Shown one piece after another: positions 18,885-25,915 of a stretch of 64,000 nucleotides of DNA. The notes under the pieces are model-generated. The model worked only from the letters and a program-made list of their open reading frames with translations. It made no database searches and was not told the origin of the DNA. The position numbers and the translations under genes were made by a program. The DNA is taken from contig CP089922.1 in the NCBI GenBank assembly GCA_041879355.1, forward strand, positions 2,912,498-2,976,497. The letters are read 5' to 3'. The DNA is from Cyanobacteria bacterium LVE1205-1. GTDB lineage: Bacteria > Cyanobacteriota > Cyanobacteriia > CAIUCS01. Positions within the stretch are counted from its first letter, which is position 1, and each line of letters starts with the position of its first letter.

Positions 18885-19334
18885 TTATTCGTATAGCCAT
18901 GAAGTTAGAGAGGGTTGCCAATCAACCAATTCTTCCTCTTGAAACCACAAACTAATTTCTTGCTGAGCCGTAGGGATGGCATCGGAGCCGTGAATTAAAT
19001 TACGTCCCACACTGACTCCAAAGTCACCCCGAATGGTTCCTAATTCAGCATTTAATGGATTGGTTGCTCCAATTATTTTCCGGGCAGCAGCGACAACACC
19101 TTCTCCTTCCCAAACCATTGCTACAACTGGACTGGAGGTAATAAAGGTGATCAGGCTATTAAAAAAAGGACGGTCTCGATGGATGGCGTAATGGTTTTCA
19201 GCCAGGGTTTGACTTACCTTGACTAATTTCAACCCAATTAATGTAAACCCTTTTGCCTCAAATCGACGGATTACTTCGCCTACAAGTTTGCGTTGTACGC
19301 CATCGGGCTTAATTGCAATAAAAGTACGTTCCAA
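18885..19334 (-). CDS. ndk: Nucleoside diphosphate kinase
   Basis: 149 aa. [15 protein letters not shown]...NLIHGSDA carries the NDK active-site His motif. Confidence 0.95.
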
Positions 19335-19439
19335 AGAATGACTCCTTGAACAAGAAAATTTCGTACTTAATTATACCATTCACCAAGGAACTTTTTACCT
19401 TCTGTTGAACTCTCCCTCTGTTAAAACGAGAGGGATTCT

Positions 19440-20478
19440 AAAACAAAATCGCCAGTGAAATGGGGATTCACGCAACCCAGATTACTCAATGGAAAAAACA
19501 GGCTCAGGAAGGACTCAAGGAGATCTTTGCGGATCGCCGAGGGAAGAGCCAGAGCCAGGAACCCTTAATTGAGAACCTTTACCAGAACATTGGTCGGCTC
19601 CAAGTGGAACTGGAGTGGTTGCAAAAAATCTGGTCTTACCTCTTGAATCAAAGCGGGAACTCATTGAACCCGCAAACCGAGAGATCAGCATTGTGCGTCA
19701 GTGCGAATTGCTGGGACTCAATCGAAGTAGCGACTACTACGAAGCAGCCAGGGAAAGCTCACATAAGGAGTACCTGATGGGAAAGTTGGATGAGCAGTAT
19801 ACCCAAACTCCCTTCTACAGGGTATTGGGAATGACGGAAGTCCTGCGAGCCCAAGGAGAAGAGGTCAATCCTAAACAAGTCCGTCGTCTACTCAGGGTAA
19901 TGGGTTTAGAAGCTATCTATCCCAAACCCAAAATCTCATCGCTAGGTGAGAATAGTCGTCGCTATCCCTATCTGCTCAGGGAAAAAGCCATTGAGCGTCC
20001 GAACCACGTTTGGAGTACTGACATCACATACATTCCACTGGACAAGGGATTTATTTACCTTGTAGCGGTGATTGACTGGTACAGCCAGTATGTCCTCTCA
20101 TGGGAAGTCTCCAATACCCTGGATGTCCACTTTTGTCTGGATGTTCTGGAAAGTACTCTCTCTCAAGGGATGCCAGAGATTTTCAATACCGACCAGGGCA
20201 GCCAATTTACCAGTCTTGCTTTTACTGACCGTCTACTCAAAGGAGGGATAACAATCAGTTAGGATGGGCGTGGTCGAGCCCTAGACAACATTTTTGTGGA
20301 ACGGATTTGGCACTCATTGAAATACGAGGAGCTGTACCTAAAGTCCTACAGGTCTGTGCCAGAGGCAATTCAAGGGATTGGGGACTATTTCAGATTTTAT
20401 AACCACGATCGTTTACATCAGTCGTTGGATTATCAGACACCGGCTATGGTTCACAGAAAAGGCAATGCCTCCTTGTAA
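19440..20478 (+). mobile_element. IS3-family insertion sequence remnant. orfA is 5'-truncated, and orfB (DDE integrase) is internally frameshifted.
   Basis: ORF 19460-19777 is an orfA leucine-zipper part (GIHATQITQWKK...LQVELEWLQK). ORFs 19615-20262 and 20296-20478 are the DDE core (HVWSTDITYIP...DNIFVERIWHSLKYEE). About the first 30 aa of orfA and the left inverted repeat are missing. Confidence 0.75.
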
Positions 20479-20518
20479 TGGATTCGCATTGGGTCTTCCT
20501 GTCCTATGTCCAGCATCA

Positions 20519-20640
20519 ACCAGCAAATACCTTACAAGGAGGTGATGTAATAATGTAACACCAACAACACATGCACTGCTAAGCGAGATTACTTCTTAAA
20601 TTCACTCTTTTTCTGTCTTGACATTGGGGAGTACCATGGG
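20519..20640. repeat. 120-bp repeat element, copy 1. It carries an AGGAGG ... ATG-TAA start-stop motif.
   Basis: About 80% identical to 33537-33655. It begins CCTTACAAGGAGGTGATGTAATAATGTAACA and ends TTGGGGAGTACCAT. Confidence 0.5.
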
Positions 20641-20774
20641 GGGAGGTTGCTTAAAGAGAGGAGTATTAAAGTATTAAGGATGTTAGTCGGTGGTGGCGGT
20701 GATTCTTGTTCCATTAATTAACCAGCGAAATTCAATAACATAAAAATAGACCAAATTAGAGGAAAAAATCATCT

Positions 20775-21404
20775 ATGGCAACTACATCCGAAGACGTATG
20801 GCGACTTTTAGCCGAATTAGCAACTGCTCAAGCTGAATTAACTGCTTCTCAAAAAGAAACTGACCTACTATTGAAGGAAGTCAGTCAACAACAGAAGGAA
20901 AACGAGCGACGACAACAGGAAAATGCCCAACAACAGAGGGAAAATGCCCAACAACTCAAAGAATTAGGACGGCAAATTGGTGGACTTGGTGCCAAATTCG
21001 GCAGCTTTACCGAAGGACTTGCCCTTCCTTCAATGGAAACGATTCTCAGACAACGGTTGGGTATGGAAGTGATCAGTCCCAGTGTGCGAGTGAGTAAAGA
21101 TGGAAAACACCTAGAAATTGATGTTCTTGCCTATACTAATGGTGAGCTAAATACTGCCTATATCGTCGAGGTTAAAAGTCATGGTAGAGAGGAATCCATT
21201 ACACAATTAATAAGTATTTTGCAACGGTTTCGCAGCTTTTTCCCTGAACACAAAGATAAAAAACTCTATGGCATATTAGCGGCGGTGGATTTATCCCCAG
21301 AATTACGGGAAAAAATTCTACAAGAAGGGTTTTATGTGGCTCGGATTCATGACCAGGTATTTGAATTAGATATTCCCGATACTTTTCAACCTCAAGCTTA
21401 TTAA
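20775..21404 (+). CDS. Paralog 1. N-terminal coiled coil plus C-terminal Hjc-like PD-(D/E)xK nuclease-fold domain (possibly DUF3782-type). Function unknown.
   Basis: 209 aa. The N-terminus is heptad-rich with (QQQRENA)n. The C-terminus reads HLEIDVLAYTNGELNTAYIVEVKSH, matching D-x15-E-x-K of PD-(D/E)xK nucleases. Confidence 0.6.
   Translation: MATTSEDVWRLLAELATAQAELTASQKETDLLLKEVSQQQKENERRQQENAQQQRENAQQLKELGRQIGGLGAKFGSFTEGLALPSMETILRQRLGMEVISPSVRVSKDGKHLEIDVLAYTNGELNTAYIVEVKSHGREESITQLISILQRFRSFFPEHKDKKLYGILAAVDLSPELREKILQEGFYVARIHDQVFELDIPDTFQPQAY
20911..20951 (+). repeat. In-frame 21-bp tandem repeat (CAACAGAGGGAAAATGCCCAA), 2 units
   Basis: It encodes (Q)QQRENA within paralog 1. The same array has 4 units in paralog 2. 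Confidence 0.8.
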
Positions 21405-21504
21405 AACATCAAAGGCGATCGCTTTCACCCTGATGTTGTGAGGGATGATTGCTTGTATTTAGCGGTAAATATCCTTTCAATACCCAATATCAAGAACAAT
21501 CACC

Positions 21505-21659
21505 CTGGTTGACTGACAAAAGTTGTACGCCCTCACCCCCAACCCCTCTCCTAGGGGGCGAGGGGAGCCGAGCCACCCCTCCGCTTCCCTCGCCCATCGG
21601 GCGAGGGCTAGGGTGAGGGCTTTCAGGGTTTTGGCTGAGAAGTTTTGTCAGTCAATCAG
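21505..21659. mobile_element. MITE family A, copy 1. 17-bp TIRs CTG(G/A)TTGACTGACAAAA; 9-bp TSD ACAATCACC at 21496-21504 and 21660-21668.
   Basis: The TIRs were read directly. The internal sequence is a long GC-rich palindrome (CCCTCACCCC...GGGTGAGGG). It is absent from the otherwise identical downstream region of paralog 2. Confidence 0.7.
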
Positions 21660-21901
21660 ACAATCACCTTTTTTGTTTCCATGCAATTAGTTTCTCCAGC
21701 GAGTGGGGTTAATTGACAATGGACAATAGATAACTATTCACTATTCACCAAAAAGGCGATCCCAGGGGGGAGGTTGCTTAAAGAGAGGAGTATTAAAGTA
21801 TTAAGGATGTTAGTTGGTGGTGGCGGTGATTCTTGTCCCATTGATTAACCAGCGAAATTCAGTAACATAAAAATAGACCAAATTAGAGGAAAAAATTATC
21901 T

Positions 21902-22573
21902 ATGGCAACTACATCCGAAGACGTATGGCGACTTTTAGCCGAATTAGCAACTGCTCAAGCTGAATTAACTGCTTCTCAAAAAGAAACTGACCTACTATTG
22001 AAGGAAGTCAGTCAACAACAGAAGGAAAACGAGCGACGACAACAGGAAAATGCCCAACAACAGAGGGAAAATGCCCAACAACAGAGGGAAAATGCCCAAC
22101 AACAGAGGGAAAATGCCCAACAACTCAAAGAATTAGGACGGCAAATTGGTGGACTTGGTGCCAAATTCGGCAGCTTTACCGAAGGACTTGCCCTTCCTTC
22201 AATGGAAACGATTCTCAGACAACGGTTGGGCATGGAAGTGATCAGTCCCAGTGTGCGAGTGAGTAAAGATGGAAAACACCTAGAAATTGATGTTCTTGCC
22301 TATACTAATGGTGAGCTAAATACTGTTTATGTCGTCGAGGTTAAAAGTCATGCTAGAGAGGAATCCATTACACAATTAATAAGTATTTTGCAACGGTTTC
22401 GTAGCTTTTTCCCTGAACACAAAGATAAAAAACTCTATGGCATATTAGCGGCGGTGGATTTATCCCCAGAATTACGGGAAAAAATTCTACAAGAAGGGTT
22501 TTATGTGGCTCGGATTCATGACCAGGTATTTGAATTAGATATTCCCGATACTTTTCAACCTCAAACTTATTAA
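21902..22573 (+). CDS. Paralog 2 of the coiled-coil / PD-(D/E)xK-like gene (tandem duplicate)
   Basis: 223 aa, near-identical to 20775-21404 including about 135 bp of upstream sequence. It differs by 2 extra 21-bp repeat units and a few substitutions (A->V, I->V, G->A next to the EVK motif; A->T at the C-terminus). Confidence 0.6.
   Translation: MATTSEDVWRLLAELATAQAELTASQKETDLLLKEVSQQQKENERRQQENAQQQRENAQQQRENAQQQRENAQQLKELGRQIGGLGAKFGSFTEGLALPSMETILRQRLGMEVISPSVRVSKDGKHLEIDVLAYTNGELNTVYVVEVKSHAREESITQLISILQRFRSFFPEHKDKKLYGILAAVDLSPELREKILQEGFYVARIHDQVFELDIPDTFQPQTY
22037..22120 (+). repeat. In-frame 21-bp tandem repeat, 4 units (1 imperfect + 3 perfect)
   Basis: GACAACAGGAAAATGCCCAA followed by 3x CAACAGAGGGAAAATGCCCAA. 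Confidence 0.8.
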
Positions 22574-22935
22574 AACATCAAAGGCGATCGCTTTTGGTCT
22601 GATGTTGTGAGGGATGATTGCTTGTATTTAGTAGTAAATATCTTTTCAATTAGTTTCCCCAGCGAGTGGGAACCAGATACTCCAGCAATCGGAACTGACG
22701 TTGAATATGAATGGACAACATTATCTCCGCCTTTCCAATCACTCCCAAAACCAATATAGTTTATACTATCAACCAATGAATACTGAATTTATTAAGAAAT
22801 TTAATATATACACGGACACTTTATAGTATTAACACGGTTTAATTTAAGGCTGATTGGGTTCAGGGGTTAAGTTTAACTTGATTAAAAAAGCGATTGCCCT
22901 AGGAGTCAACCATCAAAGCTGGGATTCTAAAACAG

Positions 22936-24086
22936 TTATTCCATCAACGCTTCTTTCAATGCCTCAATAATCCGAGTATTAGCTTTGGGAAAGGGGAAAT
23001 CGGTTAATTGCTCTAAGGTTACCCAGCGGATTTCATCACATTCTAGGGGTTGGGGCTCCCCACTCAAATATTGACAATGGTGGACATATAACGTAACCCA
23101 AAAGTGGCTATAGGTATGATCAATGGTTATCAGGGGATCCCCCACTGTCACCAGAATGCCTAATTCCTCTTGGATTTCCCGATGAATGCATTCCTCTACG
23201 GTTTCTCCGGGCTCAATTTTACCTCCAGGGAATTCCCATAAACCGCCTAACAACCCCCCTTGACGACGGCGATCGATTAAGATTTCACCATTCTGGTTTC
23301 GGATAACAGCAACCCCAATGAATTTATGGGGAAGAGTTTGTCTTACTTTGGCTGACGGTATTTCCATCGTTTTTCCTAGAATATGGGCTTGACAGTGGGA
23401 TTGCCATGGGCAACTGGAACAATTGGGATGTTTGGGCAGACAAACTATGGCTCCCAAATCCATTAAGGCTTGGTTGAAATCACGGGGTTGATCCTGAGAT
23501 AACAATTGGTCTGTCAATTTCCAGAGGTCAGGGATAGCTTGATTGACGGGAACAGGCAATGCGATGAGTCGTGCTAAAACTCGTTTGACATTAGTGTCTA
23601 AAATAGATACAGGTTGATTATAAGCACTACTCAAAATGCCTCCTGCTGTTGTTCGACCGATTCCCGGCAAGGTCAATAAGGATTGGAGGTTGGGGGGACT
23701 TCACCAGTATGGCATCGAACCATCTGCTGGGCAGCTTGATGAAGATTGCGGGCACGGGCATAATACCCTAACCCTTCCCATGCTTTTAATACCTGTTGTT
23801 GACTGGCATTGGCTAGACTGATGAGTGTAGGAAATTCAATCAACCAACGATGAAAATATGGAATTACTGTTTTTACCTGGGTTTGCTGTAACATGATCTC
23901 AGAAATCCATATTTTGTATGGATCTTGATTGTGCCGCCATGGCAGATCCCTCCCAAATAGGGTATACCACTGAAGCAATGATTGTTGCAAGTGGGGGATG
24001 GAAGTAGCGTTTAACTGCACTTTATTCATAACAGTTAATTCCTCCCCTGCGGATTCCCTCCCGAGAAATAGTTCCAGAGTTTTCAT
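22936..24086 (-). CDS. mutY: A/G-specific adenine DNA glycosylase MutY (HhH-GPD plus C-terminal NUDIX domain). Frameshifted in a G6 run at 23692-23697.
   Basis: N-terminal part (LLQWYTLFGRDLPWR...ISEIMLQQTQV). C-terminal part has the 4Cys FeS loop (CLPKHPNCSSCPWQSHC) and a NUDIX box (GLWEFPGGKIEPGETVEECIHREIQEELG). The start was chosen at MKTLELF, because the upstream 21 codons of the ORF lie inside a MITE. Confidence 0.8.
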
Positions 24087-24102
24087 AATATGAGTTGCTG
24101 AG

Positions 24103-24256
24103 CTGATTGACTGACAAAACTTCTCAGCCAAAACCCCGAAAGCCCTCACCCTAGCCCTCTCCCGATGGGAGAGGGAACCGGAGGGTGGATCGGCTCCCCT
24201 CGCCCCCTGGGAGAGGGGTTGGGGGTGAGAGCGTACAACTTTTGTCAGTCAACCAG
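24103..24256. mobile_element. MITE family A, copy 2 (inverted relative to copy 1). 9-bp TSD GTTGCTGAG at 24094-24102 and 24257-24265.
   Basis: TIRs CTGATTGACTGACAAAA / TTTTGTCAGTCAACCAG, with an internal GC-rich palindrome homologous to 21505-21659. Confidence 0.7.
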
Positions 24257-24365
24257 GTTGCTGAGTTTGGTGGTACCACTTCACAGCAAAAGTAGCATAC
24301 TATAATTTCAGGTATTCCTCTAATAAATATAAATACCGAAAACGGATGTTAATACGTTTATTTTT

Positions 24366-25915
24366 ATGAAAATAGGTGTGTGGATACTCGGGGATCAACT
24401 CTCCCTCTACGGGTCAGCGATCGCACCCCTACCCGTTGGCAGCCCTGTAATCCTCATTGAATCCCTAAACCATGGGCGATCGCGCCCTTACCATCAGCAA
24501 AAACTTATTTTAGTATGGTCTGCCATGCGTCATTTTGCTATGGAACTCAAGCAACGGGGTTATGACGTAACCTATACTGAAGCGGAAGATTTTTCTACGG
24601 CATTGTCAAACTGGATAACTTTCCAGCAGATTACCCTAGTACGGGTAATGACCCCAACAGATAAACCATTTCGGTCACTGATTCATTCACTTCAACTTTC
24701 CTGTCCCGTAGAACAAGTTGCCAACAATCAATTCCTTTGGAGTTCGGAAGCATTTCTCCAATGGGCAAAGTCACAAAAACGAGTATTAATGGAAAACTTT
24801 TACCGTGAGGGGAGGAAGCGTTTTCAGGTTTTGATGCAGCCCGATGGACAACCGATTGGAAATCAGTGGAATTTTGATAAAGAAAACCGTAAGCCTCCCC
24901 GAAAAGCAGATCCCAACTTCAATCCACCCCCACCCCTTTGGTTTCCTCCCGACTCCATCACCCAAACAGTGATTGAAAAAGTCCATACCCTTGACTTTTC
25001 CGTCTATGGTGACAGTCAACCATTTGGATGGGCTGTCACCCGTACCCAGGCTCTCGCTGTCTTGGAAAACTTTATAGAATACCGTCTCAAGACCTTTGGT
25101 CCCTATGAGGATGCCATGGTTACAGGAGAAGACAGTTTGTGGCATTCACTTCTATCCCCCTACCTTAATCTGGGTTTACTAACGCCGTGGGAAGTTATAC
25201 AGCGGGTTGAGTTGGAATATCATACACGGGAAACCATGGGCGAGCAAAGGATTGCCCTGAATAACATTGAAGGGATGATCAGACAGGTGATGGGTTGGCG
25301 AGAATACATGCGGGGTATTTACGAATGGAGTGACCCCACTTATCCCAATCAAAACTGGTTTAACCATCACCACCCCCTTCCCCCCTTCTTTTGGGATGCC
25401 ACTCAAACTGACATGAATTGTCTACATCAATGCCTTCAACAAACAGAGCGACTGGGGTATGCCCATCATATTCAACGGCTTATGGTATTAAGCAATTTTG
25501 CCCTCATTGCAGGAATTCAACCTCAGGCAATTGAACAATGGTTTCATAGTGCTTATGTAGATGCCTATGATTGGGTGATGCAAACAAATGTTATTGGCAT
25601 GGGACAGTATGCCGATGGGGGGTTCTCGCCTCCAAACCCTATGCCGCTTCTGCCAATTACATCAACAAAATGAGTGATTATTGTAAAGCCTGTCCCTATG
25701 ATCCCAAGTCCCGTATTGGGGAAACTGCCTGTCCCTTTAATTTCTTTTACTGGGATTTTCTCCATCGTCATCGCCAAAAACTCAGTCATCAAGGGCGGAT
25801 GGGTTTCATACTCAAAAATCTGGATCAAATGGATGAGGCAGAACTCAATGGAATTCGTCAGCAGGCTATTCGCTGGCATCAAAGGTACAATAGTCATCCA
25901 TCCACCATGGCATAA
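24366..25915 (+). CDS. FeS-BCP family cryptochrome/photolyase (PhrB-like (6-4) photolyase type). Frameshifted in a G6 run at 25617-25622.
   Basis: N-terminal photolyase-related domain. The C-terminal part has the conserved Cys cluster (DYCKACPYDPKSRIGETACPFN) that binds [4Fe-4S] in this family. Confidence 0.7.

Follow-up and report, generated by a model that had tools for sequence, protein, structure and literature searches.

Two tandem nuclease genes in a 64-kb window of the genome of Cyanobacteria bacterium LVE1205-1 (the whole stretch of 64,000 nucleotides analyzed here) differ by two in-frame 21-bp units, each encoding one heptad of an N-terminal helical stalk. This difference is one instance of a process that runs through the entire family: the stalks gain, lose, and reshuffle cassettes of seven (less often 11) residues, while change in the nuclease domain is far slower. 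As the most likely explanation, and one we hold to be quite probable, we infer a tolerated drift in stalk length that is constrained to keep the coiled-coil periodicity, with the two copies as one case of family-wide heptad gain and loss and not as an ON/OFF switch.

Both genes, like all features below unless stated otherwise, lie on the forward strand and were assigned to the DUF3782 / PD-(D/E)XK nucleases. Copy 1 (20775–21404) is an intact open reading frame of 209 aa with a PF12644 score of 31.6 bits, and copy 2 (21902–22573) is an intact open reading frame of 223 aa with a score of 28.6 bits, both above the gathering cut-off of 24.4 bits. The product of copy 1 has the same sequence as P0003 of ‘Cyanobacteria bacterium LVE1205-1’, and the copy 2 protein is present on contigs from two assemblies. 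A 42-bp in-frame gap is the sole indel in the pairwise alignment of the two coding sequences. Outside this gap there are seven substitutions in 627 nt (dN 0.008, dS 0.022), and four out of 142 residues of the nuclease domain (hinge included) differ. The first 287 nt of the coding sequences contain no substitutions and the flanks differ by 5–9%; the sequences hint at a possible gene conversion of the 5′ half of the copies, with numbers too small to establish it.

The initial annotation counted two versus four copies of a 21-bp repeat. This count holds when the degenerate unit CGACAACAGGAAAATGCCCAA (RQQENAQ) that precedes each exact run is included, which has more than three mismatches to the exact unit, but not for the exact 21-mer CAACAGAGGGAAAATGCCCAA, which has one occurrence in copy 1 (20931–20951) and a head-to-tail run of three in copy 2 (22058–22120). 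These are its four occurrences in the window, compared to an expectation of zero from dinucleotide-preserving shuffles. TRF identified period-21 arrays of 3.3 copies (20886–20955) and 5.3 copies (22013–22124, 86% matches). Displayed in heptad register, the period-21 array of copy 1 comprises six 21-bp units (20850–20975), reading QKETDLL LKEVSQQ QKENERR QQENAQQ QRENAQQ LKELGRQ, while that of copy 2 comprises eight (21977–22144), being the same series but with QRENAQQ three times. In this register copy 1 has its one QRENAQQ unit at 20934–20954, and the three units of copy 2, identical with zero mismatches, lie at 22061–22123, the exact 21-mer positions given above being those in the frame of the initial annotation. 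Two of these three units make up the 42-bp surplus over copy 1. The longest perfect 21-nt-periodic run measures 17 nt in copy 1 and 59 nt in copy 2, and a run longer than the latter is present in only two of 129 homologues, in line with a recent expansion. With its three identical head-to-tail units, each with a length that is a multiple of three, the copy 2 array has the properties of an in-frame VNTR. An antisense ORF over the repeats (22012–22233, minus strand), the product of which repeats CCWAFSL, was rejected as a by-product of the repeat.

Each copy is preceded by a duplicated upstream region, probably containing the promoter and 5′ leader (20636–20774 for copy 1, aligned to 21763–21901 for copy 2, with seven differences in 139 nt). 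This upstream element is also found 5′ of homologues in Microcystis loci with 80–90% identity, and its proximal block is kept across 122 distinct upstream regions. A promoter/terminator scan predicted fewer sites than in shuffled sequence. Between the copies lies a 155-bp MITE-like (miniature inverted-repeat) element with internal inverted arms (21505–21659), which is bounded by the 9-bp target-site duplication ACAATCACC (21496–21504 and 21660–21668). A second, inverted copy of this element is located at 24103–24260, and the related contig L177 has the empty site. Searching positions 19000–24500 against Rfam yielded sub-threshold matches to miRNA models only, located on the MITE hairpins. Immediately 5′ of copy 1 there is a degenerate IS3-type transposase remnant (19460–20478) whose rve/HTH_21 domains are divided between two ORFs (215 and 60 aa). 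The order of transposase followed by gene is also present in the related contig L176.

According to published work (Hartmann et al., 2016, eLife, PMC4786415), DUF3782 forms the coiled-coil stalk of PD-(D/E)XK endonucleases. Both genes are predicted to encode such DUF3782 proteins, with an N-terminal heptad helix, a glycine hinge, and a C-terminal PD-(D/E)XK domain with an intact catalytic motif. Residues 5–82 are predicted by AlphaFold2 to form one helix (pLDDT 65–85), and the hydrophobic fraction is 0.48 at heptad position 1, 0.38 at position 4 and at most 0.12 elsewhere. The initial proposal of an in-frame repeat with a 21-bp unit equal to one heptad thus agrees with a predicted continuous helix in which hydrophobic residues are confined to positions 1 and 4. 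The stalk begins around residue 5 with no globular domain N-terminal to it, and the conserved glycine hinge LKELGxQ-IGGLG connects it to the nuclease domain. The hinge (IGGLG) and PD-(D/E)XK domain of copy 1 (142 aa) are encoded at 20976–21401, with the fold evidence coming from copy 2, where the corresponding region (22145–22570) was assigned from an AlphaFold2 model, Foldseek and invariant residues. The domain-only model of 22136–22570, built on 119 diverse sequences, has a pLDDT of 91.4 and a pTM of 0.85, whereas the C-domain was poorly modeled (pLDDT 55) in a full-length AlphaFold2 prediction on a shallow 38-sequence alignment. The best Foldseek matches in the PDB are NucS/EndoMS, Cdn1, AF1548, Card1, Can2, and Bax1, all of which are PD-(D/E)XK nucleases (E-values 1e-4 to 1e-2, TM-scores 0.45–0.53). 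The residues of the E...D...ExK motif (E128, D130, E146, K148) are invariant in 38 homologues and retained in other phyla. The PF12644 score, heptad helix, nuclease-like fold and catalytic residues are those of the DUF3782 stalk-PD-(D/E)XK family. Searches against NCBIfam, PADLOC, PHROGs and PDB sequences returned insignificant coiled-coil noise only. Neither a signal peptide nor an anchor is evident in the proteins, which are of a cytoplasmic nuclease type.

We infer coiled-coil formation, and likewise an oligomeric state, for this stalk. The added QRENAQQ units have Q at position a and N at position d and so bring no hydrophobic core residue, and the expanded segment results in a stretch of 38 residues without L/I/V/M/F/W/Y, an uncommon feature in stable coiled coils. 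Tuning of oligomer geometry by unit number, as suggested in the initial annotation, appears doubtful on the predicted structure because the N-terminal end of the stalk is free and a hinge lies between the stalk and the nuclease domain. Since an N-terminal domain is missing and the hinge is glycine-rich, heptads in the middle of the stalk would alter the stalk length and leave the catalytic domains arranged as they are. A molecular ruler between two domains was rejected as well, given a helix from about residue 5, no N-terminal domain, and the GGLG hinge.

The number of units also varies between related strains, for which orthology of the loci was judged by flanking DNA (94–98% identity). Loci with a copy-1-type flank have alleles of 209 aa (window), 202 aa (L176), and 195 aa (L172), while those with a copy-2-type flank have alleles of 223 aa (window), 202 aa (L177, L175, L173), and 195 aa (L174). 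Loci with the same flanks therefore occur with 195-, 202-, 209-, and 223-aa alleles, confirming the unit-number polymorphism that was to be looked for according to the initial annotation and corresponding to VNTR polymorphism among alleles of one locus. Identical repeat numbers in all other genomes, which would have spoken against the slippage proposal, were not observed: the strain alleles differ and the whole family varies in seven-residue steps. The array of the window resembles a mosaic of a 202-type left part and a 195-type unit. A metagenome DNA scan with the exact pattern of the last unit and right flank gave no match in a collection that evidently does not contain this lineage; the metagenome homologues were gathered by a protein-seeded scan.

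The same variation is found across the family. Among 240 unique close homologues (protein lengths of 195, 202, and so on up to 244 aa), stalks span 32–102 residues in steps of seven, less often 11. The stalk length equals 7n+4 in 214 out of 240 homologues, another 22 are off by one 11-residue unit and none is off by 1–3 residues. In this set, 33 identical C-domains are each paired with two to seven different stalks. Tandem neighbor pairs elsewhere have unequal stalk lengths in 20 out of 24 cases, with C-domains that are 91–100% identical, and one pair combines C-domains without any difference in 426 nt with stalks that are one heptad apart. Lag-7 self-identity is 0.23 in representatives at 50% identity versus a background of about 0.07. 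Most arrays consist of diverged cassettes, the longest periodic run being shorter than 21 nt in 115 out of 129 homologues. The family counts about 1200 clusters at 50% identity and is multicopy in bloom-forming Microcystis, often in toxin-antitoxin islands. Carriage by phages or plasmids is not supported, with no homologue in the phage collection and a single one (47% identity) in the plasmid collection.

The resemblance to slipped-strand length variation noted initially is borne out: the difference between the copies has the signature of slippage or unequal exchange, and the perfect units of copy 2 are the expected product. The ancestral unit pair QQENAQQ (A) and QRENAQQ (B) would supply 17-nt direct repeats at 21-nt spacing. 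Misalignment during replication, or unequal exchange, would then double exactly one period to give A-B-B, and a second step from A-B-B to A-B-B-B would lead to copy 2. This second duplication would be favored because of the longer identity in A-B-B. Replication slippage, unequal crossing-over, and gene conversion would result in the same product and are indistinguishable here. The copy 2 stalk would be 14 residues longer (about 2.1 nm from helix geometry), and the added units would keep the reading frame and heptad phase and leave the hinge and nuclease domain unchanged.

An artefactual origin of the two-unit difference, either through a short repeat being collapsed or expanded during assembly or through a falsely duplicated gene, is extremely unlikely. 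The window does belong to a long contig derived from a metagenome, and there are indications of uncertain homopolymer lengths: the assemblies differ by one base at 24180, and mutY is interrupted at a C6 run. However, arrays of 42 and 84 bp are well inside single reads, and the copies can be told apart by seven coding and 14 flanking substitutions, the MITE insertion, and different outer flanks. The JGI contig L083, from another assembly of this organism, agrees with the window across 8630 bp, the homopolymer base at 24180 being the only exception, and also contains one versus three exact units, so that the two assemblies, which probably share reads, are concordant on both arrays. In addition, the junction of copy 1 and copy 2 is independently present in a related strain (L177), and dozens of other genomes have the same kind of difference. 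Alternatively, the array could be a contingency locus, i.e., a hypermutable tract in which the unit number switches often within a population and produces reversible phenotypic states. Three perfect 21-bp units indeed form a slippage-prone tract, unit numbers are unequal between strains, and there is a precedent in the heptad-encoding VNTR of NeuO (PMC3046976). Nevertheless, this is very improbable. Phase variation, which had been raised in the initial annotation, is ruled out in its ON/OFF sense, as a unit divisible by three is frame-neutral; no frameshifted variant was found, and both copies and 240 out of 240 homologues are in frame, without the change in frame or promoter spacing that defines phase-variable loci. 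Most cassettes are diverged and perfect runs short. The recurrence of identical alleles on many contigs makes fast switching unlikely: allele P0068 is present on at least 24 contigs from different samples, and the NIES-843-type triplet of 209/216/230 is identical in four sources.

Stalk length and cassette make-up might instead be selected to differ between co-resident paralogues, which has some, though a rather small, chance of being correct. One possible reason would be self-assembly with the own kind, as a register mismatch of 14 residues would disfavor mixed coiled coils; another would be recognition of different partners or targets by the variable stalk in a defense role. Tandem arrays of near-identical nuclease domains with unlike stalks recur in Microcystis and Methylococcaceae, up to seven different stalks share one identical C-domain, and the Microcystis copies reside in toxin-antitoxin or defense-type islands beside ParE, HicAB, MNT-HEPN, PIN, and NB-ARC genes. 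Moreover, indels that break the periodicity are essentially absent despite the CAA/CAG runs in the stalks, indicating structural constraint on the stalk, although a mutational bias, with slippage in 21-bp steps, could partly preserve the periodicity. On the other hand, equal stalk lengths occur in four out of 24 tandem pairs, compared to about 13% predicted for random pairs (hand calculation from the length counts of the 240 homologues), so equal lengths are not avoided beyond chance. Also, there is no significant match to PADLOC defense models, no homologue in phages, no partner gene, and no N-terminal domain. It is likewise improbable that DUF3782 nucleases are stand-alone effectors associated with defense islands, with the stalk as a fast-evolving module whose diversity among tandem paralogues is maintained by recombination of 21-bp cassettes. 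If true, the stalk would set the specificity of self-assembly or the recognition of partners or invaders, and the genes would combine a conserved nuclease with a repeat-based system of diversification.

The length-variable heptad stalk has several known counterparts. In streptococcal M proteins and the stalks of trimeric autotransporters, intragenic recombination, or slippage, of in-frame repeats alters the length of an alpha-helical coiled coil while the periodicity is kept. These proteins are secreted or exposed on the surface and face immune selection, in contrast to the cytoplasmic nuclease-type proteins in multicopy tandem arrays described here. Among the closest systems are the DUF3782 stalk endonucleases themselves, which belong to the same family and have an N-terminal repetitive stalk followed by PD-(D/E)XK; tandem peptide repeats in the stalk are a shared trait (PMC4786415). 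The repeats described there are nonads (9 residues) forming beta-layers in members from archaea and Thermosinus, and the Tcar0761 stalk has 14 near-perfect ones. Bacterial members were stated to be without such periodicities. Polymorphism in heptad number, tandem paralogue arrays, and allelic variation are not described in that study and were found here in cyanobacterial and gammaproteobacterial members. The poly-psi domain of the polysialate O-acetyltransferase NeuO is similar in being a variable N-terminal array of identical heptads (RLKTQDS) before a catalytic domain, with a number that varies between natural isolates via strand slippage (PMC3046976). It differs in its 7-nt DNA unit, its ON/OFF switching of the frame and an activity that scales with heptad number. 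In the present copies variable heptads also precede the catalytic domain, but the 21-nt unit never leaves the frame, units are mostly diverged and alleles are stable across samples. Finally, the TAEL repeats of type IC HsdS (two versus three in EcoR124I/II) are short, in-frame repeats in a helical coiled coil of a nuclease-associated protein, and their number differs between close variants by unequal exchange or slippage (PMC3874165). The HsdS unit of four residues (12 bp), however, lies between two DNA-recognition domains and is a ruler altering the recognized spacer, whereas the present stalk, with a free N-terminus and a flexible hinge, spaces no two domains.

Lengthening of a coiled coil by in-frame repeat slippage is a familiar process, and the finding itself is therefore unsurprising. 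For annotation, it means that variants of these genes differing in length by 7n residues should be taken as real alleles and not as errors. Less familiar is a large nuclease-fold family in which a very conserved catalytic domain is combined with a stalk that varies between alleles, paralogues, and phyla. These genes offer a natural series of stalk lengths for probing the role of the stalk, as well as a clean system for comparing the rates of heptad indels with those of point substitution and gene conversion.

Two tandem DUF3782 genes, copy 1 (20775-21404, plus strand, 209 aa) and copy 2 (21902-22573, plus strand, 223 aa), are both intact and contain arrays of 21-bp units. Tandem Repeats Finder delimits period-21 arrays of 3.3 copies in copy 1 (20886-20955) and 5.3 copies in copy 2 (22013-22124). 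The exact 21-mer reported in the initial annotation occurs four times in the window, once at 20931-20951 and three times contiguously at 22058-22120, against an expectation of zero in dinucleotide-preserving shuffles. The repeat is thus genuine, and the earlier description is right except for its count of two versus four units, which, given the array extents, includes one degenerate unit per gene; the perfect units number one and three. A 42-bp gap is the sole indel in the pairwise alignment of the coding sequences, confirming that copy 2 has two more in-frame units than copy 1.

Both proteins match Pfam DUF3782 above the cut-off, while no significant match was found among NCBIfam, PADLOC and PHROGs models or PDB sequences. 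DUF3782 has been described as the coiled-coil stalk of a prokaryotic PD-(D/E)XK endonuclease family (Hartmann et al., 2016; PMC4786415), and the architecture predicted here agrees with this. AlphaFold2 predicts residues 5-82 of copy 2 as one continuous helix, which a nearly invariant hinge (LKELGxQ-IGGLG) connects to the nuclease domain. The C-terminal 145 residues, modeled with 119 diverse homologues, reach a pLDDT of 91.4, and the best PDB matches of this domain are all PD-(D/E)XK nucleases (NucS/EndoMS, Cdn1, AF1548, Card1, Can2, and Bax1). No variation occurs at residues E128, D130, E146, and K148; the model places D130 and the E146-x-K148 triplet on consecutive beta strands, in keeping with the canonical motif.

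With the register counted from the hinge, hydrophobic residues concentrate at heptad positions 1 (fraction 0.48) and 4 (0.38) and are scarce at the others; roughly half of the core positions are polar (Q at a, T or N at d). Between residue 26 and the hinge, the stalk consists of related 21-bp units in succession. Because QRENAQQ lacks hydrophobic residues, the stretch free of L/I/V/M/F/W/Y is longer in copy 2 (38 residues) than in copy 1 (24 residues). Reading frame and heptad phase are both preserved, and the 14 extra helical residues would add about 2.1 nm to the predicted stalk (~0.15 nm per residue). That they tune oligomer geometry, as had been proposed, is doubtful because the far end of the stalk is free and the glycine hinge decouples the nuclease domain; the units could alter the length or stability of the stalk but not the arrangement of the heads. 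The TAEL repeats of HsdS, in contrast, form a true ruler between two domains (PMC3874165). A repetitive stalk is already known in this family from Tcar0761, where it is built of nonads.

The duplicated segment (20636-21481 and 21763-22650) comprises ~139 bp upstream, the gene, and ~77 bp downstream. Apart from the indel, the copies differ at 7 of 627 coding positions (dN 0.008, dS 0.022), and the initial 287 nt are free of substitutions. The flanks are more diverged (7/139 upstream, 7/77 downstream), which may reflect gene conversion within the coding region, although the numbers are small and fall short of proof. A 155-bp MITE-like element between the copies (21505-21659) ends in inverted repeats (CTGGTTGACTGACAAAAG...) and is flanked by a 9-bp target-site duplication (ACAATCACC); a second copy with 94-95% identity is found in inverse orientation immediately upstream of mutY (24103-24260). 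The related contig L177 has the same junction between copies 1 and 2 without the element, so the tandem pair is older than the insertion and is no assembly artefact. In contigs L173-L175, the element occupies a different position in the same locus. A JGI contig from this organism equals the window across 8630 bp, including both arrays, but for one base in a G-run at 24180, suggesting that one data set was assembled or polished twice and that the homopolymer length is uncertain.

The pair is located between an IS3-family transposase remnant (19460-20478) next to ndk and mutY (22936-24149, minus strand). The remnant has its rve integrase core divided between ORFs of 215 and 60 aa and is therefore unlikely to be active; the related contig L176 shows the same order of transposase and DUF3782 gene. 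In mutY, a frameshift within a C6 run (23692-23697) separates an HhH-GPD ORF from a NUDIX_4 ORF, and C7 would restore ...GEVPPNLQSLLTLPGIGR...; the interruption reflects either a homopolymer error in the assembly or a real site of inactivation or slippage in a gene for mutation avoidance. The ~140 bp preceding each copy (20636-20774 and 21763-21901) recur ahead of DUF3782 genes at many Microcystis loci with 80-90% identity between genera and a well-conserved proximal block (AAATTC...TAATAGACCAAATTAGAGGAAAAAAT.ATCT-ATG). This stretch has no Rfam match and probably represents promoter and leader.

Contigs from other samples with flanks 94-98% identical to those of the window genes were taken as matching loci. 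Next to the copy-1-type flank, which adjoins the IS3 remnant, the proteins are 209 (window), 202 (L176), and 195 aa long (L172), and next to the copy-2-type flank 223 (window), 202 (L177, L175, and L173), and 195 aa (L174). Unit number is therefore polymorphic rather than uniform among strains at same-flank loci. The best 120 homologues measure 195, 202, 209, 216, 223, 230, 237, or 244 aa. Among 240 unique close homologues, stalks range from 32 to 102 residues and 214 have lengths that are congruent modulo 7; 22 are offset by one 11-residue unit, three fit two or three such units, and in one (contig L109) 6 residues are duplicated. No stalk among the 240 differs by 1-3 residues, despite CAA/CAG runs. 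In some lineages (Snowella and Merismopediaceae-type; L031, L047, L110, L133, L141, L144, and others), 11-residue units (TDRQLKELGKQ, LKEQLKETDRQ; one to three copies) replace heptad expansion.

A familiar mutational process accounts for the two-unit difference. The window array resembles the left part of a 202-type stalk (QxENERR QQE...) joined in register to a 195-type unit (...NAQQ QRENAQQ) and then expanded. The QQENAQQ and QRENAQQ units share 17 nt at 21-nt spacing; misalignment of these repeats would duplicate exactly one period, giving a second QRENAQQ, and the longer identity would then favor another step. Copy 2 is exactly what such stepwise duplication would yield, in line with the slipped-strand-type variation initially suggested, slippage, unequal crossing-over, and conversion being equally compatible routes. 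Only two of 129 homologues have a perfect periodic run longer than the 59 nt of copy 2, which indicates a recent expansion; most arrays are older, diverged cassettes.

Phase variation, also suggested initially, is excluded in its ON/OFF form by the 21-bp unit length. The closest functional analogue, the poly-psi domain of NeuO, has N-terminal heptads whose number varies by slippage (PMC3046976), but its 7-nt unit also permits frameshift switching, which is impossible here. High-frequency switching is unlikely, since the same 230-aa allele recurs without change on 24 or more contigs and four sources give an identical 209/216/230 triplet for Microcystis NIES-843. Selected diversification of the stalks would fit the contrast with the nuclease domains: 33 identical C-domain sequences each pair with 2-7 different stalks, and 24 tandem neighbor pairs in other genomes, with nuclease domains 91-100% identical, differ in stalk length in 20 cases and in stalk sequence in 23, one pair having no difference in 426 nt of the nuclease domain and yet standing one heptad apart. 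However, random pairs, computed from the length counts of the 240 homologues, share a length only ~13% of the time, so neighbors are as unlike as random pairs and no more. The near-absence of periodicity-breaking indels indicates that coiled-coil periodicity is structurally important, whereas the broad spread suggests that length itself is weakly constrained. We therefore favor, with good confidence, stepwise duplication with tolerated length drift, and consider selected diversification improbable.

Relatives extend well beyond this locus. A search with just the nuclease domain yields 1195 clusters at 50% identity, whose N-terminal self-identity is 0.23 at lag 7, 0.135 at lag 11, and ~0.07 at other lags. 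In the gammaproteobacterial Thiocapsa and Methylococcaceae, family members have QETDRRM-type arrays before a domain 73-80% identical to the cyanobacterial one, while their stalks (L049, L054-L060, L066-L068) are unrelated in detail, which suggests horizontal transfer across phyla. A 118-bp piece of the C-terminal coding region directly upstream of an intact copy (L171:4738-4855) is a relic of a lost tandem partner. In Microcystis (L164-L170, including NIES-843, AP009552), the genes lie within toxin-antitoxin islands (ParE/Phd, UPF0175/DUF3368, MNT/HEPN, HicAB, RelB, and PIN), adjoining NB-ARC or CHAT proteins, with one to three copies at the same island depending on the strain. No homologue was found in the phage collection and only one in the plasmid collection. 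A role in defence or as a toxin is a plausible conjecture. In the literature searched, where two papers mention DUF3782, we found no account of variation in heptad number or of tandem paralogues with unlike stalks, and the feature draws attention to a large nuclease family, still uncharacterised, whose stalk is unusually plastic.
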